From a virus (Duplodnaviria > Heunggongvirae > Uroviricota > Caudoviricetes), in the IMG/VR virus record IMGVR_UViG_2740892230_000007: DNA of 11,245 bases. One strand, written 5' to 3'. Position 1 is the stretch's first letter. Every line of letters begins with the position of its first letter. Shown here piece by piece: positions 1 through 11,245 of this stretch. A program made the translations under genes and the position numbers. The notes under the pieces are model-generated. The model did no database searches and had not been told where the DNA came from. It was given only the letters and a program-made list of their open reading frames with translations.

Positions 1-38
1 CGCTGAACGGGATTATTTCATCCTCAGAGAACGGTTGA
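1..38 (+). CDS. Rz1: Rz1 o-spanin, C-terminal fragment embedded in Rz in the +1 frame (copy A)
   Basis: Frame starting at position 3 gives LNGIISSSENG* (stop 36-38), matching the lambda Rz1 C-terminus (...DWQTPLNGIISPSERG). Embedded-gene arrangement is typical of Rz/Rz1. Confidence 0.75.
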   Translation, partial: LNGIISSSENG

Positions 39-127
39 TGACAATGCAGAAGCAGGTGGAAGGGGCACAGGACTATATCCGCACTCAGTGTACTAAGCAG
101 GCTTTTTATTATCCGGAGGATGTATGA
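1..127 (+). CDS. Rz: Rz i-spanin, C-terminal fragment (copy A; 5' end lies outside the window)
   Basis: Reading from position 2 gives ...AERDYFILRERLMTMQKQVEGAQDYIRTQCTKQAFYYPEDV*, matching my recollection of the lambda Rz C-terminus (...ADTAERDYFTLRERLITMQKQLEGTQKYINEQCR). Stop TGA at 125-127. Confidence 0.8.
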   Translation, partial: AERDYFILRERLMTMQKQVEGAQDYIRTQCTKQAFYYPEDV

Positions 128-348
128 AGAAATTACAGGTAACGGTAAAACCTTTTCAGGGAACAATTCCGTTCCGTGTTTTGCAACATGGCCGTGTTCT
201 GCTTGAAGAGGTGTTCAGAGGTAAATGCACTGAATGTTATTCACGAACATATGAAGTGAATGCCACGCATGAAGAATTCACCGTTGAGTGTGTGATGAAT
301 ACTGATAAATGCCGAATGGTATCCGCTGAATTACAGCCAGTGTGTTGA
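124..348 (+). CDS. Hypothetical small protein, 74 aa, five Cys (CTEC...C...C...C); cargo ORF downstream of Rz
   Basis: ORF 124..348. ATG at 124-126 overlaps the Rz stop (ATGA); GGAGG at 115-119. Lies in a ~270-bp segment absent from the paralogous copy B, where Rz is followed directly by the conserved block. No family recognised. Confidence 0.45.
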   Translation: MKKLQVTVKPFQGTIPFRVLQHGRVLLEEVFRGKCTECYSRTYEVNATHEEFTVECVMNTDKCRMVSAELQPVC

Positions 349-390
349 GCGACCTTATTATCCATGCGCGGTATTGTCGCCGTATTCCTG

Positions 391-479
391 CATTAACAGA
401 GACCGCAGCCCGACAGGGAGACTCCTCTGCGCGAGTGTGCGGGGATAATCAAAAACGATACACACCGGGGTTTACCGCG
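391..479. repeat. Conserved apparently non-coding block, copy A (89-bp core identical to 1107-1195; wider homology ~364-539)
   Basis: Letter-by-letter comparison of 391-479 with 1107-1195 shows identity; flanks are more diverged. No convincing ORF with a start codon and RBS on either strand. Confidence 0.6.
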
Positions 480-540
480 TAAACGGAGCGCGGCGTTCTC
501 CCCTCATGGTCGCCCGTCCGGTGCGATGGTGGAAGAAACT

Positions 541-716
541 GGAATCTGTTCAATAAAAAAACTGCCGTGTTGGAGTCACAGCAGTAATGTACTGATTGGG
601 TAGAAGATTATTATTGTTATGCTTTATTTTTATTCTATATGGCTGATTATTTCAATTCGGAATTAATACAGCTAATGTCTGTGATTTTTTATAAATTCAG
701 CAATATAAAGAAATAG
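541..716. other. AT-rich island (~176 bp) between the conserved block and the YlcI-like gene of copy A; absent from copy B
   Basis: Visibly AT-rich against GC-rich surroundings. In copy B the conserved block (ends ~1255) abuts the YlcI-like stop (1263) with no such insert. Confidence 0.5.
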
Positions 717-875
717 TTATATGAACAGCCATCGCAGAGCATACTGTGTATCATTCTTTTTTATAGTCAACTGACGGGCATATTTTATGTCTGCTGCCAG
801 CTCCCGGCGGCAAGATTCAATGACCCACGCAGAAAAATTTTCTGAACCTTTCTGGTCAAGAGCGATGTTAATTTG
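717..875 (-). CDS. YlcI/YnfO-like small prophage protein, C-terminal portion (copy 1; N-terminus lost in the N gap)
   Basis: Minus-strand translation after the gap: QINIALDQKGSENFSAWVIESCRRELAADIKYARQLTIKKNDTQYALRWLFI*. Paralogous to the complete 66-aa ORF at 1263-1463 (shared QINIAL..KGS.NFSAWVIE.CRR.L core) but with a different C-terminus. Confidence 0.55.
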   Translation of the reverse strand, partial: QINIALDQKGSENFSAWVIESCRRELAADIKYARQLTIKKNDTQYALRWLFI

Positions 876-885
876 NNNNNNNNNN
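876..885. other. Assembly gap (10 N), joining a YlcI-like gene to the middle of an Rz gene
   Basis: Run of N; flanks are unrelated gene fragments on opposite strands. Confidence 0.95.
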
Positions 886-1008
886 TCAACGCCACCTGCT
901 CCGGTACCGTGCGTGAAGCCACCGGCACCTCCGGCGTGGATAATGCAACCGGCCCCCGACTGGCAGACACCGCTGAACGGGATTATTTCATCCTCAGAGA
1001 ACGGTTGA
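886..1008 (+). CDS. Rz1: Rz1 o-spanin, C-terminal fragment embedded in Rz (copy B)
   Basis: +1-frame translation ...CVKPPAPPAWIMQPAPDWQTPLNGIISSSENG* matches lambda Rz1 (...CVKPPPPPAWIMQPPPDWQTPLNGIISPSERG). Confidence 0.8.
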   Translation, partial: STPPAPVPCVKPPAPPAWIMQPAPDWQTPLNGIISSSENG

Positions 1009-1070
1009 TGACAATGCAGAAGCAGCTGGAAGGGGCACAGGACTATATCCGCACTCAGTGCCTGAACTAA
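886..1070 (+). CDS. Rz: Rz i-spanin, C-terminal fragment (copy B; 5' end lost in the N gap)
   Basis: ...VREATGTSGVDNATGPRLADTAERDYFILRERLMTMQKQLEGAQDYIRTQCLN*. Positions 971-1060 match 1-90 with one mismatch; C-terminus differs from copy A. Confidence 0.8.
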
Positions 1071-1106
1071 GTTTTGCTGATGCGCCGTATCGTCGCTGTA
1101 TTCCCT

Positions 1107-1195
1107 CATTAACAGAGACCGCAGCCCGACAGGGAGACTCCTCTGCGCGAGTGTGCGGGGATAATCAAAAACGATACACACCGGGGTTTACCGCG
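1107..1195. repeat. Conserved apparently non-coding block, copy B (wider homology ~1080-1255)
   Basis: Identical to 391-479. Confidence 0.6.
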
Positions 1196-1262
1196 TTAAC
1201 GGAGCGCGGCGTTGTCCCCTCATAGTCGCCTGTCCGGTGCGATGGTGGAAGAAACCGAACGT

Positions 1263-1463
1263 TCATTTCTCGTTATTTGTCATGCTGGCCGGGCGCAGAT
1301 GCGTTGCATCTGTTGCCAGCCTTCTCCTGCAGGCTTCAATAACCCACGCTGAAAAGTTACCGGACCCTTTATGCTCAAGGGCGATGTTGATCTGTTCAAT
1401 TATGTGATTGGGGAAACGGATATTGCGGGTTGTGGTTCTGCGGGTCCGGTTTTTCGATGACAT
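1263..1463 (-). CDS. YlcI/YnfO family (DUF3950-like) small prophage protein, 66 aa
   Basis: Complete minus-strand ORF MSSKNRTRRTTTRNIRFPNHIIEQINIALEHKGSGNFSAWVIEACRRRLATDATHLRPASMTNNEK. Resembles, from memory, the small YlcI/YnfO proteins found between Rz and the terminase small subunit homolog in E. coli prophages DLP12 and Qin. Family name is recalled, not computed. Confidence 0.6.
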   Translation of the reverse strand: MSSKNRTRRTTTRNIRFPNHIIEQINIALEHKGSGNFSAWVIEACRRRLATDATHLRPASMTNNEK

Positions 1464-1491
1464 TTTCTTTCCTCTGGTGACAAGTTATATG

Positions 1492-1563
1492 ACGGGGATT
1501 TTACATGGCTGAGCTTCGTACACTCCAGAGCAGAATCAAAACTCTGAATACCCGGCGGGTGAA
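1492..1563. repeat. Left copy of a diverged direct repeat flanking the N gap (pairs with 1574-1645); holds an alternative 5' end of the HNH gene (ATG 1505, MAELRTLQSRIKTLNTRRV)
   Basis: 1492-1563 aligns to 1574-1645 at offset 82 with about 8 mismatches. Confidence 0.8.
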
Positions 1564-1573
1564 NNNNNNNNNN
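1564..1573. other. Assembly gap (10 N) between overlapping, non-identical segments
   Basis: Run of N flanked by ~72-bp near-identical direct repeats. Confidence 0.95.
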
Positions 1574-1586
1574 GCGAGGATTTTAC

Positions 1587-1818
1587 ATGGCTGTGCTTCG
1601 TACGTTACCGGGCAGAATCAAAACTCTGAATACCCGGCGGGTGAATGTCCTGAAGGGTGAACAGCGTCGGGTCAGTGGCAGTGCCCGGGTTTCCCTCAAG
1701 CGTCGTATCTGGCTGAGGGATGCCGGGCAGTGCTGTCTCTGTGGTCGTGTGGTTGACCTCTGTGACAGTGAACTCGATCACCGAATTGCACTTCAGTTCG
1801 GTGGTGGTAATGAGGAGA
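1587..1818 (+). CDS. HNH endonuclease, N-terminal ~77 codons (3' end lost in the N gap at 1819)
   Basis: MAVLRTLPGRIKTLNTRRV...CCLCGRVVDLCDSELDHRIALQFGGGNEE: a Cys pair followed by DH and GG-N, as in HNH nucleases. GAGGA at 1576-1580 before ATG 1587. Position beside cos and the terminase genes fits the known terminase-associated HNH proteins. Confidence 0.7.
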
Positions 1819-1828: not shown

Positions 1829-1879
1829 GACTACATTGAAAATGATAACCATTATCATTTTTGCGGGTCCTCCTGGTGG

Positions 1880-2093
1880 GGTGGGCCTGAACACGGGGCG
1901 GACGGCGCGGGAAAAGGCGCATTTTTGTGATTTTATCGTCATCATCATCATTAGCGTAACTTGTTGTTTTTAATGTGTTTAGCATTAAAAAGATGATGAT
2001 TGTGGTTGATTTTTGTTCGACATCTTTATATGGCGGCATTTCTTTACAAAAAAAGAGCCACTTTTGTTCAGCGGTTTATGTGGAGGGATGTGA
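1880..2093. other. Candidate cos region (cosN-like core ~1893-1911, then repeat-rich cosB-like region)
   Basis: acggggcggacggcgcggg at 1893-1911 resembles lambda cosN as I recall it (ACGGGGCGGCGACCTCGCGGG). Downstream cgtcat...aactt...tgttttta also recalls the lambda cosB side. CAT/ATG triplet repeats at 1935-1947 (atcatcatcatca) and 1992-2000 (gatgatgat, inverted); A-tract at 2049-2055. Sits directly upstream of the terminase small subunit. Confidence 0.5.
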
Positions 2094-2570
2094 ATGGACG
2101 GCGAGCTGAAAAATATGAAGTTAAATATTAATCAACTGGCAGCCATTTCAGGTCTGCACCGGCAGACTGTTGCCGCCAGAATGGCGGATGTTCCTCTTGC
2201 ACCAGGTAGTAATGAAAAGAAAAAAATGTATCTCCTGACGGATTTGATTATTTCGTTGCTGGAAAAACCACCGGCTTCCGAAGATGAAGAGATGAACCCA
2301 CATGATCGGAAGGCATGGTATCAGTCCGAGCGCGAGCGTCTTAAATTTCAGCATGAAACTGTTCAGCTTGTGCCAGTCAGTGATGTCAGGCGGTCCTTTT
2401 CTGTCGTGGTGAAAGCGATAGTTCAGGTACTGGAAACCTGGCCTGACCGGCTGGAGAGGGACAGGGGGTGGACCGCATCACAACTGAATGAAGTACAGAT
2501 TGTGGTTGATGAGATCCGCGATACACTGGAAAAGGCAGTCATTGACTGTTGTGATGAGGCCGATATGTGA
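2094..2570 (+). CDS. Terminase small subunit (helix-turn-helix DNA-binding N-terminus)
   Basis: ORF 2094..2570, 158 aa. N-terminal LNINQLAAISGLHRQTVAARM looks like an HTH. GGAGGG at 2080-2085. Stop overlaps the GTG start of the large subunit (ATGTGA). Alternative start ATG 2115. Confidence 0.7.
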   Translation: MDGELKNMKLNINQLAAISGLHRQTVAARMADVPLAPGSNEKKKMYLLTDLIISLLEKPPASEDEEMNPHDRKAWYQSERERLKFQHETVQLVPVSDVRRSFSVVVKAIVQVLETWPDRLERDRGWTASQLNEVQIVVDEIRDTLEKAVIDCCDEADM

Positions 2571-4690
2571 ATCAGGTGAACGAGAGCCATAGCCGCGCAT
2601 CCGATATCTGGCGCGAAGTGGCCTCGCTGTTTCGCCCACCCAGCCGGTTACCAGTAGCGGAAGCCATCAGGCGTTATATGCGGGTACCACGGGGAGCCAA
2701 TACTTCCGGTCCGTGGGAGTCATCGCTGACGCCCTATATGATTGACCCCATTAATACATTATCAGCCCGTGAATATGACGCGGTGGTGTTTGTGGGACCT
2801 GCGCGAACCGGGAAAACCGAAGGGCTGATTGATGGCTGGATTGTGTACGGCATCATCTGTGATCCGGCGGATATGCTGGTGGTGCAGATGACTGAGACGA
2901 AGGCGCGTGAGCATTCCAGAACGCGTCTTTCCAGAACGTTTCGCCACAGTCCGGAGGTCAGCAAGCGCCTCAGTCCTTCCCGTAATGACAACAACGTCCA
3001 CGATAAAATGTTTCTTGACGGCTCCTTCCTGAAGATTGGCTGGCCGTCGATCACTGTATTTTCTTCTTCGGATTACCGTCGTGTGGCGCTGACGGATTAT
3101 GACCGTTTCCCTGAAAACGTGGACGGGGAAGGGGATGCCTTCACCCTGGCATCAAAGCGTACCACCACCTTTATGTCCTCGGGGATGACCTTGGTCGAGA
3201 GTTCGCCGGGGCGGGATATCACTGACACCAAATGGCGCTGTGGCGGCGCACATGAGGCACCGCCAACAACGGGGATCCTGTCACTGTATAACCGGGGAGA
3301 CCGCCGCCGGTGGTACTGGCCGTGTCCGCACTGCGGGGAATATTTTCAGCCGGTGATGGATAACATGACCGGATACCGGAATAACCCGGATTTTGTGGCT
3401 GCCGGTCAGGCTGCCCGTCTGATGTGTCCGCATTGTCGCGGGCTGATTGCCCCTGAGCAGAAACGCGAACTGAATAACAAAGGGATCTGGCTTCGTGAAG
3501 GTGAACGGGCGGTGGCGGACGGCAGTATCACCGGAACACCACGAAATTCCAGGATTGCGTCATTCTGGATGGAGGGGCCGGCTGCGGCGTTTCAGACCTG
3601 GGAACAACTGATTTTTAAACTGCTGGCGGCAGAAGAAGAGTATGAGCGAACCGGCAGTGAAGAGACCCTGAAAGCGGTGGTGAACACCGATATCGGACGC
3701 CCCTATCTGCCCCGTTCAGCCACGGAACAGCGTAAAAGTGAACTGCTTGAACAGCGTGCCGAGCCGTTTCCCCGGCGATCTGTGCCGGATGGTGTGCGTT
3801 TTATTGAGGCAACGGTTGACGTACAGGGCGGTAAAAATCGCCGTTTTGTTGTGCAGATCACCGGATACGGAGAGCAGGGGGAACGCTGGATTGTTGATCG
3901 CTATAACATCCGGCATTCACTGCGCTGCAGTCCCAACGGTGAAAGTCTGCCGGTTGATCCGGCGGCATATCCGGAGGACTGGGATTTGTTGCTGACGGAT
4001 GTGTTCCATAAAACATGGCCGCTGGCTTCTGATCCGGATGTGCGCATGCGTCTGATGGCCATGGCGGTGGATACGGGAGGGGAAGCCGGGGTGACAGATA
4101 ACGCCTATCGTTTCTGGCGTCGTTGCCGGAGTGACGGACTGGGCAACAGGGTGTTTCTGTTCAAGGGGGATGGACTTCGCCGTGACAGGCTGATTAACCG
4201 TACCTTCCCGGATAATACCGGCAGAAGTGCCCGCCGTGCCAGAGCCAGTGGCGATGTCGCGCTGTGGCTGGTTCAGACGGATGCGTTTAAGGACCGTGTA
4301 AATAATGCCCTGTGGCGTGACACACCAGGGCCGAACTATATCCACTTTCCCGACTGGCTGGGGCGATGGTTTTACGATGAGCTGACCTATGAAGAGCGCG
4401 GCAGTGACGGAAAATGGCGAAAACCGGGCAGGGGAGCTAACGAGGCGTTTGACCTGCTGGTTTATGCGGATGCGCTTGCCGTTCTGCATGGTTACGAAAA
4501 GATCCGCTGGCCCTCCGCACCGGACTGGGCACAGCGGGAAACGTGGCTCGTCTTCCCGCAGGAGCGTTCTGGTGAAACGGTATCCCCGGAACTGACGGCC
4601 GGGGCAGAAAAACGCCGTCGCCGGAAGAAAAAACTGCGGACGGAGCGTGCGGAAGATAATCCATGGATAACATCAGGAGGCTGGTTGTGA
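2567..4690 (+). CDS. Terminase large subunit, lambda gpA family
   Basis: 707 aa, GTG start at 2567 overlapping the small subunit stop. Walker A-like VFVGPARTGKTE; CPHCGEY and CPHCRG Cys pairs and NKGIWLREG mirror lambda gpA (ACPHCGEEQYLKF, EKTGIWTRDG) as recalled. Confidence 0.9.
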   Translation: MNQVNESHSRASDIWREVASLFRPPSRLPVAEAIRRYMRVPRGANTSGPWESSLTPYMIDPINTLSAREYDAVVFVGPARTGKTEGLIDGWIVYGIICDPADMLVVQMTETKAREHSRTRLSRTFRHSPEVSKRLSPSRNDNNVHDKMFLDGSFLKIGWPSITVFSSSDYRRVALTDYDRFPENVDGEGDAFTLASKRTTTFMSSGMTLVESSPGRDITDTKWRCGGAHEAPPTTGILSLYNRGDRRRWYWPCPHCGEYFQPVMDNMTGYRNNPDFVAAGQAARLMCPHCRGLIAPEQKRELNNKGIWLREGERAVADGSITGTPRNSRIASFWMEGPAAAFQTWEQLIFKLLAAEEEYERTGSEETLKAVVNTDIGRPYLPRSATEQRKSELLEQRAEPFPRRSVPDGVRFIEATVDVQGGKNRRFVVQITGYGEQGERWIVDRYNIRHSLRCSPNGESLPVDPAAYPEDWDLLLTDVFHKTWPLASDPDVRMRLMAMAVDTGGEAGVTDNAYRFWRRCRSDGLGNRVFLFKGDGLRRDRLINRTFPDNTGRSARRARASGDVALWLVQTDAFKDRVNNALWRDTPGPNYIHFPDWLGRWFYDELTYEERGSDGKWRKPGRGANEAFDLLVYADALAVLHGYEKIRWPSAPDWAQRETWLVFPQERSGETVSPELTAGAEKRRRRKKKLRTERAEDNPWITSGGWL

Positions 4691-4899
4691 GCACAGAAGA
4701 AGCCAGAGAAATGATACAGCGGTACCGTGAAGCGGAAATGGCCGTACTGGAGGGGAAGTCTGTCACCTTCAACGGACAGCAACTGACGCTGGAAAGCCTT
4801 TCTCAGATCCGCGCCGGACGTCAGGAGTGGGAACGCAGGCTTGCCGCGATGGTGAGCCGCAGGCGGGGAAAACCAGGATTTAAACTGGCGAGGTTTTAA
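4687..4899 (+). CDS. W: Head completion / head-tail joining protein, gpW family
   Basis: Ends ...RRRGKPGFKLARF, like lambda gpW (...RRRGPAGFYV). Preferred start GTG 4687 (AGGAGG at 4674-4679, overlaps the terminase stop as GTGA); the ORF track's ATG 4663 is an alternative. Confidence 0.75.
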   Translation: MSTEEAREMIQRYREAEMAVLEGKSVTFNGQQLTLESLSQIRAGRQEWERRLAAMVSRRRGKPGFKLARF

Positions 4900-6401
4900 T
4901 GGCAATTATTGATGATGTGATAGGCGTGTTTTCCCCCGGCTGGAAAGCAGCCAGACTGCGTTCAAGGGCGTTAATCATGGCCTATGAGGCGGTGAAACCG
5001 ACCCGGACACATAAAGCCCGGCGGGAAAATCGCTCTGCTGATCAGCTCAGTAAATACGGTGCGGTTTCCCTGCGGGAGCAGGCCCGTTTTCTGGATATCA
5101 ATCATGACCTGGTGATTGGTGTGTTTGACAAGCTGGAAGAGCGGGTGATTGGTGCCAGGGGAATTATTGTGGAGCCTCAGCCATTACGAAAAAACGGGGA
5201 AATGGCGGCAGAGCTGGCTGCGGATATCCGCCGGTTGTGGGCTGAGTGGTCCGTGAGTCCGGATGTGACAGGGCAGTATACCCGTCCCGTGCTTGAACGT
5301 TTACTGCTGCGGACCTGGCTGCGGGATGGTGAAGTGTTTGCGCAGATGGTCAGTGGTGCGGGAAACGGTCTGGAACGGACGGCGGGAGTGCCATTCTGGC
5401 TTGAGGCGATGGAGCCGGATTTTGTTCCCATGCGCACTGATGAATCCGCCGGACTGAATCAGGGGGTTTTTCTTGATGAGTGGGGAAGACCGAAAAAATA
5501 TCTGGTTTATAAAAATTATCCGGTCAGCGGCCGGCAGAGTGATACGAAAGAAATCGCTGCCGGAAAAATGATCCACCTGAAGTTCACTCGTCGTCTGCAT
5601 CAGACGCGAGGCTCATCCATGTTATCGGGGGTGCTGATACGGATCAGTGCCCTTAAGGAGTATGAGGATGCGGAACTCACTGCGGCGCGTATTGCCGCGG
5701 CGCTGGGACTGTATATCCGTAAAGGTGACGGGCAGGACTATGAAGAGCCGGGGATCAAAGAAACCGACCGGGAAGTCCATATCACCCCGGGTATTATTTA
5801 TGACGATTTGCGCAAGGGCGAGGATATCGGCATGGTCAAATCAGACCGTCCCAATCCCAACCTTGAAACTTTCCGCAACGGCCAGTTGCGTGCAGTGGCA
5901 GCGGGCAGTCGTCTGAGTTTTTCCAGTGCGGCGCGTAACTATAACGGCACCTACAGTGCCCAGCGGCAGGAGCTGGTCGAGTCCACGGATGGTTACCTGA
6001 TCCTGCAGGACTGTTTTATTGGCGCGGTAACCCGTCCGGTGTACCGGACATGGCTGAATATGGTGGTTGCGGCAGGTCTGCTGAAAATTCCGGCGGATGT
6101 GGAGATGAAAACGCTATATAACGCGACGTATTCCGGTCCGGTGATGCCGTGGATCGACCCGGTTAAGGAAGCTGAAGCCTGGAGAATTCAGATCCGGGGT
6201 GGTGCAGCGACAGAATCTGACTGGGTGCGTGCCGGCGGGCGCAATCCGGATGAGGTCAAACGTCGCCGCAAGGCTGAAATTGATGAAAACAGCAGACTGG
6301 GGCTGGTCTTTGATACTGACCCCGTCAACGACAAAGGAGGCAACAGTGCCGGAACTGAACAACAGCGTCAGCAGGCCACCGACAGCCAGCATGAAGAATA
6401 A
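4899..6401 (+). CDS. Portal protein, lambda gpB family
   Basis: 500-aa ORF directly after W (TAATG overlap), in the position and of the size expected for a lambda-type portal, between W and the prohead protease. Confidence 0.85.
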   Translation: MAIIDDVIGVFSPGWKAARLRSRALIMAYEAVKPTRTHKARRENRSADQLSKYGAVSLREQARFLDINHDLVIGVFDKLEERVIGARGIIVEPQPLRKNGEMAAELAADIRRLWAEWSVSPDVTGQYTRPVLERLLLRTWLRDGEVFAQMVSGAGNGLERTAGVPFWLEAMEPDFVPMRTDESAGLNQGVFLDEWGRPKKYLVYKNYPVSGRQSDTKEIAAGKMIHLKFTRRLHQTRGSSMLSGVLIRISALKEYEDAELTAARIAAALGLYIRKGDGQDYEEPGIKETDREVHITPGIIYDDLRKGEDIGMVKSDRPNPNLETFRNGQLRAVAAGSRLSFSSAARNYNGTYSAQRQELVESTDGYLILQDCFIGAVTRPVYRTWLNMVVAAGLLKIPADVEMKTLYNATYSGPVMPWIDPVKEAEAWRIQIRGGAATESDWVRAGGRNPDEVKRRRKAEIDENSRLGLVFDTDPVNDKGGNSAGTEQQRQQATDSQHEE

Positions 6402-8334
6402 ATCCTGGTTCAGGATGCAGGCGGGTGGTCAGGGTGAGGCGGATATTTATATTTATGACGAGATTGGTTTCTGGGGAGTTACCGCGAAGCAGTTTGTCAG
6501 CGATATGAATGCCCTGGGTGATATCACCCACATTAATCTCCACATCAACTCACCGGGTGGCGATGTCTTTGAAGGCATCGCCATTTTTAATGCCCTGAAA
6601 AATCACGGTGCGGCCATTACCGTGTATGTGGATGGCGTTGCCGCCTCGATGGCATCCCTGATTGCGATGGCCGGTGACACGGTCATTATGCCGGAAAATG
6701 CCTTCATGATGATCCATAAACCCTGGGGGATCAGCGGTGGTGATGCGGAGAAAATGCGCACTTATGCCGAACGTCTGGACAAACTTGAGTCGGTTATGGT
6801 GCCGGTATATGCGCAGAAAACCGGAAAAACTACCGATGAAATTGCCGCCATGCTGGCGGATGAGACCTGGATGTCCGGTGCCGAGTGTCTGGCACACGGA
6901 TTTGCAGACCAGGTGACGCCAGCCGTTAAGGCAATGGCATGTANNNNNNNNNNCCGAAATATGATCACGCAGCCATACAACAGTGCCCCGCGTGATACCA
7001 CAGTGACAATCCCTGCACCGGCGGTAACAGAACCATCACCGGTACCGGCAGTGTCTGATGAGGCGACCATTCGCGCCCGCGTTATGGCAGAACAGAAAGC
7101 CCGCATGTCAGGCATTAACGATCTGTTTGCCATGTTCGGCGGTCGCTATCAGACGCTTCAGGCACAGTGCGTGGCTGATCCTGACTGTTCGCTGGAAATG
7201 GCCCGTGAACGTCTGCTGAATGAAATGGGCAAGGAGTCCTCGCCGACCAACAAAAATACACCGGCTCATATTTATGCCGGAAACGGCAATTTTGTGGGGG
7301 ACGGGATCCGCCAGGCGATGCTGGCCCGTGCCGGATTTGAAAATGTCGAGAAGGATAACGCCTATAACGGGATGACCCTGCGTGAATGGGCTCGCATGTC
7401 ACTGACGGAGCGCGGTATTGGGGTGGCCAGTTATAACCCCATGCAGATGGTCGGGCTGGCGCTGACGCACAGCACCTCTGATTTTGGCAATATTCTGCTG
7501 GATGTGTCGAACAAGGGGCTGATCCAGGGCTGGGAGGAATCAGAAGAAACCTTCCAGAAGTGGACCCGTAAGGGACGCCTGTCAGACTTCAAAACAGCGT
7601 ATCGCGTGGGGATGGGCGGTTTTGGTTCTCTGCGCCAGGTTCGTGAGGGGGCGGAGTATAAATACATCACCACCTCAGATCGCAAGGAGACCATTGCACT
7701 GGCCACTTACGGGGAGATTTTCTCCATCACCCGCCAGGCCATTATCAATGATGATCTGAATATGCTGGTGGACGTGCCGATGAAGATGGGGCGTGCGGCG
7801 AAGGCAACGATTGGTGACCTGGTTTACAAGGTGCTGACGGATAACCCGAAACTGTCAGACGGTAAGGCGCTGTTCCATGCCGATCACAAAAATATTGCCA
7901 CCGGTGGGATTTCCGTTTCCGGACTGGATGCGGCCCGTCAGATGATGCGCCTGCAGAAAGAAGGCGATCGCGCCCTGAATATCCGTCCGGCCTTTATGCT
8001 GGTACCGGTGGCACTGGAGACGGTGGCGAACCAGACCATCAAATCGGCCAGTGTGAAAGGGGCGGATGCAAACGCCGGTGTCATTAACCCCATCCAGAAC
8101 TTTGCTGAGGTGATTGCAGAAGCGCGTCTTGATGCGGCAGATCCGAAAACCTGGTATCTGGCGGCGGCACAGGGCACTGACACCATTGAAGTGGCCTGGC
8201 TGGATGGTGTGGACACGCCATACATTGATCAGCAGGAAGGTTTCACCACTGACGGCATTGCCACAAAAATCCGTATTGATGCCGGAGTGGCACCACTTGA
8301 CTGGCGCGGGCTGGTGCGTTCGTCGGTGGCCTGA
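6346..8334 (+). CDS. Prohead protease (ClpP/S14-like) fused to scaffold-like linker and HK97-fold major capsid protein; interrupted by an N gap
   Basis: N-terminal part (ADIYIYDEIG...INSPGGDVFEGIAIFNALKNHGAAITVYVDGVAASMASLIAMAGD...MIHKPWG) is ClpP-like. The C-terminal ~400 aa is capsid-like by position and size. Preferred start GTG 6346 (AAGGAGG at 6334-6340); ATG 6391 and ATG 6415 are alternatives. The ORF track's 6199 start overlaps the portal by 200 nt and is rejected. Frame continuity across the gap is not evidence of a real fusion. Confidence 0.75.
   Translation: MPELNNSVSRPPTASMKNKSWFRMQAGGQGEADIYIYDEIGFWGVTAKQFVSDMNALGDITHINLHINSPGGDVFEGIAIFNALKNHGAAITVYVDGVAASMASLIAMAGDTVIMPENAFMMIHKPWGISGGDAEKMRTYAERLDKLESVMVPVYAQKTGKTTDEIAAMLADETWMSGAECLAHGFADQVTPAVKAMACXXXXRNMITQPYNSAPRDTTVTIPAPAVTEPSPVPAVSDEATIRARVMAEQKARMSGINDLFAMFGGRYQTLQAQCVADPDCSLEMARERLLNEMGKESSPTNKNTPAHIYAGNGNFVGDGIRQAMLARAGFENVEKDNAYNGMTLREWARMSLTERGIGVASYNPMQMVGLALTHSTSDFGNILLDVSNKGLIQGWEESEETFQKWTRKGRLSDFKTAYRVGMGGFGSLRQVREGAEYKYITTSDRKETIALATYGEIFSITRQAIINDDLNMLVDVPMKMGRAAKATIGDLVYKVLTDNPKLSDGKALFHADHKNIATGGISVSGLDAARQMMRLQKEGDRALNIRPAFMLVPVALETVANQTIKSASVKGADANAGVINPIQNFAEVIAEARLDAADPKTWYLAAAQGTDTIEVAWLDGVDTPYIDQQEGFTTDGIATKIRIDAGVAPLDWRGLVRSSVA
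6944..6953. other. Assembly gap (10 N) inside the protease/capsid ORF
   Basis: Run of N between the protease domain and the linker region. Confidence 0.95.
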
Positions 8335-8356
8335 TAACCGAGTTATCACAATCACT

Positions 8357-8375
8357 GCCCGAAAGGGCTTTTTTT
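8357..8375 (+). terminator. Putative intrinsic terminator or attenuator after the capsid gene
   Basis: gccc-gaaa-gggc hairpin (4-bp stem, GNRA-type loop) followed by 7 T at 8369-8375, 23 nt after the capsid stop. Short stem, so probably partial termination at best. Confidence 0.4.
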
Positions 8376-8386
8376 ATGCCTGAAAA

Positions 8387-8405
8387 ACAGCCCCACAGGG
8401 GCTGT
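8387..8405 (+). other. Strong hairpin (8-bp stem acagcccc/ggggctgt, 3-nt loop) between the capsid and next gene; no T-tract
   Basis: Perfect inverted repeat read directly; lies 17 nt before ATG 8422. Confidence 0.4.
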
Positions 8406-8421
8406 CCGGAGAAACAGCATT

Positions 8422-8748
8422 ATGGCGAAAAATTTTGTACAGGACGGTACCACCATTGAACTGGTGAATGCCGGAGATCAGACCATCCTGAGCGGTGCTG
8501 CGGTGGTGGTCGGCAGTATGGTGGCCGTGGCCATTACCGATATTCCTGCCGGTGATGCCGGTGACGGTTTTGCCGAAGGCGTGTTCCTTCTGCCCAAACA
8601 GTCTGCTGACGACATTCAGTCCGGCGCGGTGGTTTATCTGAAGGACGGGGTTGTGCAGCTGGCTGCAGAGGGTGCGGTGGCCGCGGGGGTAGCCTGGGAA
8701 AATGCTCCTGCAAACAGCGCCACTGTGGCGGTAAAAATCAATGTCTGA
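8422..8748 (+). CDS. Small Ala/Gly/Val-rich head protein (possible capsid decoration or cement protein, DUF2190-like)
   Basis: 108-aa ORF just after the capsid gene; GGAGA at 8407-8411. Composition and position resemble small head-decoration proteins of lambdoid prophages. Family call is from memory. Confidence 0.5.
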   Translation: MAKNFVQDGTTIELVNAGDQTILSGAAVVVGSMVAVAITDIPAGDAGDGFAEGVFLLPKQSADDIQSGAVVYLKDGVVQLAAEGAVAAGVAWENAPANSATVAVKINV

Positions 8749-9022
8749 TCTGTTTACGCGAATGTGTTGCCGGATGGACGGGGCGACCGTTCGGGTGATG
8801 GGCAAACAGGCGGAGATTAACGGCGTCGTGTATGACGTGATGCCGGAGGAAGAGTCCGCGGAGATGGGGGCGCTTTCGGGCAGCCAGTTGTCACTGGTGG
8901 TGTTTTCAGCCCGGTACCGTCCGGCCCGTCATGATGTTGTTGTGTTTGCGGGGCGCACACTGACGGTGACCCGTTATGACACGTACAACGGTAAACCCCG
9001 GATTTTTGTCGAACAGGAATGA
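8741..9022 (+). CDS. Head-tail joining protein, FII-like
   Basis: 93 aa; 8-nt overlap with the upstream gene. Motifs GVVYDVMPEEES and SLVVFSARY...RTLTV echo lambda gpFII (GVFDDPEN, SLFVRTDEV...DTLTI) as recalled. Sits directly before Z as FII does in lambda. Confidence 0.55.
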   Translation: MSDLFTRMCCRMDGATVRVMGKQAEINGVVYDVMPEEESAEMGALSGSQLSLVVFSARYRPARHDVVVFAGRTLTVTRYDTYNGKPRIFVEQE

Positions 9023-9648
9023 GTATGGCAATAAAAGGTCTGGCGCAGGCCATGAAAAATCTGGATGCAATTGACCGCCGTGCCGTTCCCCGGGCTGCCG
9101 CCACGACACTTAACCGTGTGGCGGAGTCCATCATCGCGAAAACGGCCTCTTCGGTTGCCAGGGAGCTGGCGGTTCCGCGCCGTCTCATCCGTGAGCGTAT
9201 CCGCCTGCAACGGGCCAGCGCAGACAGGGTTTATGCGAAGGTCATCATCAACACCGGTAATCTGCCCGCCATAAAACTGGGGACGGCCAGCGTGCGGCTT
9301 TCCCGCAGAAAGCGACGAAAGAAAGGCGAGCGTTCGGTCACGAAAGGGGGCGGCAGTGTGCTGATTGTGGGGAAAAGACGGATCCCGGACGCCTTTATCA
9401 CCCGGCTGGCTAACGGACGCTGGCATGTGATGCAGCGTATGCCGTGGGCACCATCGTCCACCGGTGCTGACAGCAAAGGGAGGCCGAAACGCCACCGTCT
9501 GCCGATTGAAGTGGTGAAAATTCCGACTGCCGGACCGCTGGCAGAAACCTTTGAACGTGAACGGGACCGGATGTACCGGGAAAAATTACCGGCGCAGATG
9601 ATGAAAGCCATGACGCATCAGTTACGCCTGGTGCTGAAAAGAAAATGA
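9019..9648 (+). CDS. Z: Minor tail protein Z (tail completion)
   Basis: 209 aa. MAIKGLAQA...AVP.AAA..NRVA...AS.VARE...LP.IKLG...LSRRKRRKKG.RS..KGGGSVL.VG.RRIP.AFI..L.NGRWHVMQR matches lambda gpZ as recalled. ATG 9019 overlaps the upstream stop (ATGA). Confidence 0.9.
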   Translation: MSMAIKGLAQAMKNLDAIDRRAVPRAAATTLNRVAESIIAKTASSVARELAVPRRLIRERIRLQRASADRVYAKVIINTGNLPAIKLGTASVRLSRRKRRKKGERSVTKGGGSVLIVGKRRIPDAFITRLANGRWHVMQRMPWAPSSTGADSKGRPKRHRLPIEVVKIPTAGPLAETFERERDRMYREKLPAQMMKAMTHQLRLVLKRK

Positions 9649-9660
9649 CAGGGAGGGTGT

Positions 9661-10059
9661 ATGAAACACCGTGAAATACGGACGGCAGTTCTGTCTGCCC
9701 TGAAAGACAATATTTCTGAGCGGGTGAGCTGGTTTGACGGCCGCCCGGTTTTTATTGATGAACAGGAACTGCCTGCTGTTGCTGTTTACCTGACTGATGC
9801 GTCTGCTGCTGACGAGTTCGTTGATGAGGGGACCTGGGAGGCGACACTGCATATTGAAGTTTTTCTCAGGGCAAAAGAACCGGACTCGGCACTGGATATG
9901 TGGATGGAAGAGAAAATCCTTCCTGCGCTGGAGGCGGTTCCCGGCCTCAGTGCGTTACTGCTGAAGATGAATCTTCAGGGGTATGACTACCGCCGGGATG
10001 ATGAGTTTATGATGTGGGGATCGGCAGATCTCCTGTGGAAAATTACCTACGAGATGTGA
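9661..10059 (+). CDS. U: Tail terminator protein U
   Basis: 132 aa. [14 protein letters not shown]...PAVAVYLT...LHIEVFL...GYDYRRDD...ITYEM is close to lambda gpU (131 aa, MKHTELRAAVLDAL...ITYEM). GGAGG at 9652-9656. Confidence 0.95.
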
Positions 10060-10066
10060 GGACGAT

Positions 10067-10936
10067 ATGGCAATACCAAATCCTCTTGAGCCGGTGAAAG
10101 GTTCCGGCACCACACTATGGGTGTACACCGGCAAGGATGATGCTTATGCCAACCCGTTGTCAGATGATGGCTGGCAGCGACTGGCTAAGGTGAAGGATCT
10201 GACGCCGGGCGAGATGACGGCAGAACCCTACGATGATAACTACCTGGATGATGAAGACGCGGACTGGACCGCGACCGGGCAGGGGCAGAAGTCTGCAGGA
10301 GATACCAGTTTTACGCTGGCCTGGAAACCGGGAGAAGAAGGTCAGAAAGGGCTTATAGGCTGGTTTGAAAGCGGGGATGTGCGGGCCTATAAAATCCGTT
10401 TTCCGAACGGCACGGTGGATGTGTTTCGTGGCTGGGTCAGCANNNNNNNNNNGGAAGGCCAGAAAGGGCTTATAGGCTGGTTTGAAAGCGGCGATGTCCG
10501 GGCCTATAAAATCCGTTTTCCGAATGGCATGGTGGATGTGTTTCGTGGCTGGGTCAGCAGTATCGGTAAGGCCGTGACGGCGAAAGAAGTGATCACCCGC
10601 ACGGTGAAAGTGACCAACGTGGGCAAACCTTCTGTAGCGGAAGAACGCAGCAAAATTACGCCGGTCACTGCGATTAAGGTGACGCCGACATCCGGTACGG
10701 TGGCAAAAGGGAAAACAACCACCCTGACGGTTTCTTTTGAGCCGGAAAGTGCAACAGACAAGACGTTCAGAGCGGTTTCCGCCGATCCGTCGAAAGCCAC
10801 CATTAGTGTGAAAGATATGACAATTACGGTAAACGGCGTGGCGACAGGTAAGGTGCAGATCCCTGTGGTGAGCGGAAATGGTCAGTTCGCCGCAGTGGCT
10901 GAAGTCACCGTTACTGAAGCGGGCGCTGCAGGGTAA
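10067..10936 (+). CDS. V: Major tail protein V (with C-terminal Ig-like domain); contains an artefactual 39-codon duplication across an N gap
   Basis: Near-identical to lambda gpV as recalled ([10 protein letters not shown]...[19 protein letters not shown]...[26 protein letters not shown]...[42 protein letters not shown]...). ORF is 289 aa against 246 for lambda V; the excess equals the duplicated segment plus the gap. Confidence 0.95.
10337..10442. repeat. Left copy of a diverged direct repeat inside V (pairs with 10454-10559)
   Basis: Aligns to 10454-10559 at offset 117 with 5 mismatches. Encodes [35 protein letters not shown]; the right copy has M for T at one position. Confidence 0.85.
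10443..10452. other. Assembly gap (10 N) between overlapping, non-identical segments inside V
   Basis: Run of N flanked by ~106-bp near-identical direct repeats. Confidence 0.95.
10454..10559. repeat. Right copy of the diverged direct repeat inside V
   Basis: See 10337-10442. Confidence 0.85.
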
Positions 10937-10949
10937 ACGGAGGTCATAC

Positions 10950-11245
10950 ATGTTTCTGAAAACAGAACAATTTGAATATAACGGTGTGTCTGTCACGCTT
11001 TCCGAATTGTCTGCGCTGCAGCGTATCGAGCATCTTGCCCTCCTGAAACGGCGTGCAGAACAGGCAGAATCCAGCGGCAACCTGCAGGTAAGCGTGGAAG
11101 ATCTCGTCAGAACCGGCGCGTTTCTGGTGGCGATGTCCCTGTGGCATAACCATCCACAGAAAACGCAGTCACCGTCAATGAATGAGGCCGTGATGAAGAT
11201 AGAGCAGGAAGTGCTCACCACCTGGCCTGCCGATGCCATTGCCCG
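10950..11245 (+). CDS. G: Tail assembly chaperone G, N-terminal ~98 codons (runs off the window end)
   Basis: MFLKTEQFEYNGVSVTLSELSALQRIEHLALLKRRAEQAESSGNLQVSVEDLVRTGAFLVAMSLWHNHPQKTQSPSMNEAVMKIEQEVLTTWPADAIA closely matches lambda gpG as recalled. ACGGAGG at 10937-10943 before ATG 10950. Not in the ORF track because no stop falls in the window; the G/GT frameshift site would lie beyond the window. Confidence 0.9.
   Translation, partial: MFLKTEQFEYNGVSVTLSELSALQRIEHLALLKRRAEQAESSGNLQVSVEDLVRTGAFLVAMSLWHNHPQKTQSPSMNEAVMKIEQEVLTTWPADAIA

Follow-up and report, generated by a model that had tools for sequence, protein, structure and literature searches.

An apparent Rz to HNH duplication in a viral record, very probably made by serial joining of prophage contigs

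The stretch of DNA that we analysed (the window, 11,245 nt in all; virus record IMGVR_UViG_2740892230_000007) is very probably a draft-genome scaffold in which short contigs from several similar Escherichia coli prophages were joined one after another with 10-N spacers. The duplication that it appears to carry would, in all likelihood, be two alleles of one locus placed in series and not two copies on one DNA molecule. The source is most likely an E. coli with several lambdoid prophages (STEC-like). Taken singly and judged by sequence comparison, the segments consist of mosaic lambdoid prophage sequence that is ordinary and well represented; their arrangement is not a biological feature.

N runs and contig ends

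We found five N runs in the window, each exactly 10 long (Table 1), so the window consists of six contigs (segments 1 to 6). Comparison with homologous loci put the true offsets across gaps 1, 2, 4 and 5 at about -960, -72, +46 and -107 nt, and the two sides of gap 3 had no relation to each other. Since the runs are always 10 long while the true offsets differ widely, they are placeholders and not size estimates.

Every repeat or duplication boundary in the window falls on one of these fixed 10-N runs, and the genes at the junctions are all cut: YlcI-A is without its 5' end, HNH-B ends after 19 codons and HNH-A ends after 77. Late-operon order and orientation are kept across all six segments. 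Hence, the segments appear to have been ordered by the scaffolder, by read pairs or by a reference, and not concatenated at random.

Table 1. Segments, N gaps and genes of the window, with the evidence or remark for each.
Feature	Position	Strand	Evidence or remark
Segment 1, contig of prophage type A	1-875	+	99.9% to 2013C-3264 prophage
Rz C-terminus, segment 1	2-127	+ (segment)	Pfam PF03245
Rz1 end, segment 1	3-38	+ (segment)	
74-aa ORF cassette, segment 1	124-348	+ (segment)	
Conserved block copy 1, segment 1	364-543	+ (segment)	
AT-rich island, segment 1	540-789	+ (segment)	
YlcI-A, 3' 52 codons only, cut by gap 1	717-875	minus	Pfam PF13132
N gap 1	876-885	none	In homologous coordinates, segment 2 starts ~960 nt upstream of where segment 1 ends
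Segment 2, contig of prophage type B (stands between segment 1 and segment 3)	886-1563	+	Mosaic identity matches
Rz1 end, segment 2	886-1008	+ (segment)	
Rz end, segment 2	888-1070	+ (segment)	Pfam PF03245
Conserved block copy 2, segment 2	1080-1255	+ (segment)	
YlcI-B, complete	1263-1463	minus	Pfam PF13132
HNH-B, first 19 codons	1505-1563	+ (segment)	
N gap 2	1564-1573	none	Ends of segments 2 and 3 overlap by 71-72 nt, 90% identity
Segment 3, contig of prophage type A	1574-1818	+	Intergenic end and HNH-A start
HNH-A, first 77 codons, cut by gap 3	1587-1818	+ (segment)	RefSeq annotation of 100%-identical DNA
N gap 3	1819-1828	none	HNH fragment joined to unrelated lambda-type packaging module
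Segment 4, contig of prophage type C	1829-6943	+	Cos-proximal region to start of ClpP-protease/capsid fusion; Pfam
DUF1441 gene, segment 4	2094-2570	+ (segment)	Pfam
gpA-type large terminase, segment 4	2567-4690	+ (segment)	Pfam
Lambda-family portal, segment 4	4899-6401	+ (segment)	Pfam
N gap 4	6944-6953	none	Replaces 46 nt of the protease/capsid fusion gene
Segment 5, contig of prophage type C	6954-10442	+	Capsid remainder, head-tail genes, 5' part of tail tube gene
N gap 5	10443-10452	none	Segments 5 and 6 overlap by ~106 nt, 95% identity
Segment 6, contig of another prophage	10453-11245	+	Tail tube gene and gpG chaperone region

Alleles of the Rz to HNH region

The preliminary description of this DNA had reported two versions of one region in the same orientation, at 1-875 and 886-1563, and a third segment that begins again at the HNH start (1574). 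We found both. Segments 1 and 2 share direct repeats of 75.6-98.9% identity, depending on the block: the Rz/Rz1 end (1-90 and 971-1060, 98.9%), a conserved block of ~176 nt (364-539 and 1080-1255, 94.9%) and the 3' part of YlcI (790-875 and 1309-1394, 75.6%). Segments 2 and 3 share the HNH start (1493-1563 and 1575-1645, 90%), with complete identity between the last 34 nt of the former and 1612-1645 of the latter.

Besides this block-wise identity of 76-99%, segments 1 and 2 differ by two large indels. The cassette with the 74-aa ORF (91-363) is exclusive to segment 1, with 19 nt corresponding to it in segment 2, and so is the AT-rich stretch at 540-789 (29-31% GC), to which 53 nt correspond. 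The two insertions that had been ascribed to the first version alone are therefore real; the accompanying statement that the versions otherwise differ by point mutations does not extend to the YlcI copies, which are divergent alleles (76%).

Pfam searches returned Rz (PF03245, E 6e-22 and 5e-10) and Rz1 (PF06085, E 5e-20) where segments 1 and 2 begin, and DUF3950/YlcI (PF13132) on the minus strand of the two (E 3e-19 and 7e-15), in agreement with the gene calls made earlier. The call of YlcI in both versions needs one amendment, in that the segment 1 copy comprises only the 3' part of the gene. For the truncated 77-aa HNH-A fragment, the Pfam search gave no match, and the HNH call is backed by the RefSeq annotation of identical DNA.

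We found that segment 1, over its full length, is 99.9% identical (1 mismatch, 0 gaps) to a prophage of E. coli 2013C-3264 (NZ_CP027544; positions 6086-6960 of the fetched locus, L001), and that segment 3 is 100% identical to positions 7058-7302 of the same locus, annotated there as HNH endonuclease WP_000279810.1. In this one prophage, which lies at 4.98 Mb, the two segments are colinear with 97 nt between them, and the gene order is lysis protein, 74-aa hypothetical protein, YlcI, HNH, small terminase, large terminase and HK97-type capsid. Segments 1 and 3 are evidently parts of a single prophage whose packaging module is of the HK97/Stx type.

Segment 2 covers the same ground. In the coordinates of L001, it begins 85 nt upstream of the start of the window and ends 72 nt into segment 3; its YlcI is only ~76-85% identical to the type A version, and both insertions of segment 1 are absent. 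The copies in segments 1 and 2 are not each other's closest relatives but are 99.9-100% identical to different prophages of another strain (for segment 2, in its 3' part). Specifically, the 3' ~420 nt of segment 2 (1143-1563) are 100% identical to a second 2013C-3264 prophage (L004), at 0.999 Mb of NZ_CP027544 and ~4 Mb from L001, and 886-1230 is identical to the EcPF7 prophage (L003). The whole architecture of segment 2 is colinear and single-copy in the IMG/VR contigs L040, L025, L022 and L013 and in FDAARGOS_1283 (L061).

Since segment 2 had no complete-genome match of 99% or more over its full length, its home prophage has to be read from these mosaic matches, from which we infer that segment 2 is the equivalent stretch from a second HK97/Stx-type prophage, allelic to segments 1 and 3. 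The explanation favoured earlier, that overlapping contigs of different lambdoid prophages were mis-joined, is supported by this result: segments 1 and 3 come from one prophage, and the allele of another stands between them. We also considered whether segment 2 is a bridge over the 97 nt that separate segment 1 from segment 3 in L001 and rejected this, as 10 of the 97 positions differ from type A.

The central junction of segment 2 (1080-1300) occurs at 100% and in one piece in FDAARGOS_1283. For the mosaic make-up of this segment, an assembly chimera and ordinary lambdoid mosaicism fit equally well, and the choice between them is of minor importance.

Lambda-type packaging and tail segments

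Segment 4 matches E. coli 55989 (L002 10001-15115) at 99.88% and the gap-free draft contig FUBW01000084.1 (L050) at 100%. Segment 5 is 99.66% identical to 55989 (L002 15162-18650), with 11 of its 12 mismatches within the last 220 nt, and its first 1,701 nt, the stretch of the contig that was compared, are 100% identical to FUBW01000084.1. The 46 nt replaced by gap 4 are present in both gap-free versions (L002 15116-15161 and L050 8378-8423). Segments 4 and 5 evidently belong to a third prophage, one with lambda-type packaging genes.

The lambda-type layout of 55989 is Rz, conserved block, cos region, DUF1441, gpA terminase, portal and ClpP/capsid fusion, and segments 4 and 5 follow it at 99.7-99.9% identity. 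Unlike 55989, the window has a truncated HNH fragment ahead of this module, instead of Rz and the block, and 10 N in place of the 46 nt. In 55989, the conserved block (L002 9823-10002) has its 3' edge at the first base of segment 4 (L002 10001), with a 2-nt overlap, and an artificial query that links the Rz-block part of segment 2 to segment 4 matched without a break in 390 complete genomes. Hence, what natively lies upstream of segment 4 is Rz with the block, not HNH. Upstream of its equivalent of segment 4, FUBW01000084.1 has its own third version of the Rz-block region. The join of segment 3 to segment 4, which sets an HNH fragment before a lambda-type cos/DUF1441 terminase module, is evidently artificial.

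At the far end of the window, 10337-10442 of segment 5 and 10454-10559 of segment 6 overlap across gap 5 at 95%. The tail of segment 5 differs from the head of segment 6 in five places, all of them exactly where segment 5 departs from 55989. Hence, the two segments hold different copies of the tail gene. With 55989, segment 6 shares only 89% identity, but prophages of other STEC genomes match it at 99.4-99.5%, among them one at a third 2013C-3264 site (0.931 Mb of NZ_CP027544). The join at 10443 is evidently artificial as well, with segment 6 from yet another prophage.

The best matches differ by segment: 2013C-3264 for segments 1 and 3; EcPF7, FDAARGOS_1283 and 2013C-3264 for segment 2; and 55989 and FUBW01 for segments 4 and 5. 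At 99% or more, no complete genome matched every segment. Such a pattern would suit an artefact that combines alleles from different strains or genomes, through a mixed culture, a metagenome bin or a reference-ordered pseudomolecule. We regard this origin as very unlikely, however, given that 2013C-3264 alone holds sequences of type A, type B and the segment 6 type in three separate prophages and that genomes with matches carry a median of 2 copies of the region, and up to 13-17. Hence, a single multi-lysogen suffices as the source.

Mis-joining in the window is wider than first noted. Of the five gaps, the first three had been noted earlier; besides the Rz to HNH segments, the joins at gap 3 and at 10443 would be artificial too.

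The arrangement in other genomes and its origin

We searched 5,426 complete E. coli genomes with 1-2400 of the window, which matched 4,584 records, and found 80% or more of this query in one place in 0 of the 4,584. The best matches put 1-1818 on a single record interval of 1,302 bp, which is used more than once. A second copy was likewise absent from phage records, as the 409 that matched segment 2 did so in 409 places, one in each. We also fetched 60 comparison loci (635 kb in total; 40 IMG/VR loci matched a 45-mer from segment 2). Their layouts were Rz end, block, YlcI and HNH in 37, Rz end, block and cos/DUF1441 in 14, block, YlcI and HNH in 6 and cos/DUF1441 alone in 3. In 0 of the 60 did any element occur twice, and in 0 of the 60 did HNH adjoin cos/DUF1441.

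The late region of HK97/Stx-type lambdoid phages, as in 2013C-3264 at 4.98 Mb and FDAARGOS_1283 at 1.758 Mb, runs Rz/Rz1, a variable cassette in some, YlcI/DUF3950, HNH, TerS and TerL. Segments 1 and 3 together, and segment 2 by itself, each have this normal single-copy layout. The window differs in that two instances stand in series, both cut and neither followed by an HK97-type terminase. An HNH gene beside cos and terminase is common among phages (PMC3592412).

These searches bear on the possibility of a real local tandem duplication, from Rz to HNH, in one prophage, with N runs that are small unsequenced gaps lying at the repeat boundaries by chance. The copies do share orientation and register, and lambdoid prophages recombine extensively. 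Against this, three of three duplication boundaries lie exactly on N runs; what look like copies are divergent alleles (YlcI 76%) with different indels in each; the 99.9-100% match of each lies in a different prophage of a single complete genome (2013C-3264); and segments 1 and 3 are contiguous in a real prophage, 97 nt apart and with nothing inserted. Moreover, the duplication would yield no intact HNH gene and is followed by no matching HK97-type terminase, and no such duplication was found in the 5,426 complete genomes, the 409 phage records or the 60 loci. A tandem duplication is hence extremely improbable. We give scarcely any credence, too, to a real serial order in the form of a heterogeneous tandem array, in which recombination between co-resident prophages would have fused two Rz-YlcI-HNH alleles to a lambda-type terminase.

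Serial joining of contigs from paralogous prophages would account for the window as follows. In 2013C-3264, the sequences of the two HK97-type prophages agree exactly over at least 5.8 kb, starting just past the HNH gene. Since short reads cannot span such exact repeats, contigs would end at the edges of the variable stretch. An assembler would break contigs wherever near-identical prophage copies diverge or converge, and the scaffolder would then line up the short allelic contigs in series with a fixed 10-N placeholder between them. Contig ends that overlap imperfectly could not have been merged, so N runs would be inserted there.

Short-read assemblies of EHEC are reported to fragment within lambdoid and Stx prophages (PMC7175801). 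The window resembles the known mis-assembly of such EHEC/STEC prophages in having the same breaks at the edges of near-identical modules, with many short phage contigs, and in having alleles of one locus in series with placeholder N runs; we found no essential difference from it.

The earlier caution that gene adjacency here may not reflect any real phage is well founded, since the arrangement occurs in 0 of the complete genomes, phage records and fetched loci and its boundaries lie on 10-N runs. The result serves as a quality warning only: adjacency is unreliable across all five N runs, and this applies also to the HNH-DUF1441 junction and to the part of the tail tube gene that is present twice. 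A duplicated lysis/packaging region, a chimeric system of HNH and lambda-type terminase, or a phage architecture would be spurious if drawn from this scaffold.

The conserved block is common to three downstream contexts at ~94-96% identity, namely the AT-rich island with YlcI-A, YlcI-B directly, and cos/DUF1441, and the Rz end is likewise common upstream. We rejected the block (364-543 and 1080-1255) as a structured RNA, since an Rfam search at gathering thresholds gave no match and its predicted fold was no better than those of shuffled sequences (z = -0.13). The block behaves as a shared linker between mosaic modules.

Junctions at the N gaps

The coordinates of the features are collected in the table. 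Across the gap that follows the HNH fragment, we compared gene order with that of other loci and found HK97-type terminases downstream of HNH in the comparison loci (n = 60); HNH adjoins DUF1441 in 0 of the 60. The adjacency of HNH and a lambda terminase in the window is spurious.

Features at the segment junctions and mosaic boundaries (nt, coordinates of the window)
Feature	Coordinates	Position or context
74-aa ORF cassette	91-363 (ORF 124-348)	insertion site in the last codons of Rz
Conserved block (~176-180 nt)	364-543 and 1080-1255
AT-rich island (29-31% GC)	540-789	between conserved block and YlcI-A
HNH fragment (77 codons) joined to lambda-type cos/DUF1441/gpA module	1574-2100	gap 1819-1828
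N gap	6944-6953	within ClpP-protease/major-capsid fusion gene; ORF split, out of frame
Overlap of segments 5 and 6	10337-10559	within tail tube gene; gap 10443-10452

In the capsid fusion gene, the ten N occupy the place of a genuine 46-nt sequence, which reads TTCAGTCAAAACGTACAGAGGAATTTAAAAAGATGCCGGAATCCAT in the prophage of E. coli 55989, and the draft contig FUBW01000084.1, which has no gap, is 100% identical on either flank.

For the tail tube gene, we found that the end of segment 5 (6954-10442) and the start of segment 6 (10453-11245) overlap by ~106 nt at 95% identity. Segment 6 has only 89% identity to the 55989 prophage, which is matched by segments 4-5, and 99.4-99.5% identity to prophages of other STEC genomes. 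The junction at 10443-10452, outside the duplicated region that the preliminary description had attributed to concatenated contigs, is a further case of the same assembly artefact.

Variable sites around the conserved block

The conserved block retains 94-96% identity across three downstream contexts, YlcI-A and YlcI-B (the divergent DUF3950 alleles of segments 1 and 2) and cos/DUF1441, and its 3' edge is a breakpoint of the assembly contigs. It has no Rfam match, and its fold shows no advantage over shuffled versions (z = -0.13). The block probably acts as a homologous linker where mosaic modules meet.

At the Rz end, the cassette replaces the C-terminal 'LN' of Rz with 'TKQAFYYPEDV', and the Rz stop overlaps the ATG of the 74-aa ORF (ATGA), which has no Pfam match. 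Since a 74-aa gene also occupies the equivalent position 5' of DUF1441-type terminases in other genomes, where loci L047 and L049 match 1-543 at 89% identity, the cassette looks mobile and moron-like, with two packaging contexts.

We found no RefSeq gene annotation in the interval matching the AT-rich island (6434-6801) in L001, a prophage locus of the complete genome 2013C-3264. The EcPF7 prophage carries a TonB-family protein gene at the island site or just 5' of it, and KilA-N genes are located 5' of the conserved block in L004, another prophage of 2013C-3264. From these sequence comparisons, the island site looks like an insertion hotspot.

Two prophages of 2013C-3264 that share an identical stretch

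In this closed genome (NZ_CP027544), L001 and L004 (at 4.98 Mb and 0.999 Mb, respectively) are identical over at least 5.8 kb, a stretch that starts just past the HNH gene and spans terminase, capsid and portal. One of the two copies has frameshifts in several of its annotated portal and head genes, which are pseudogenes there.
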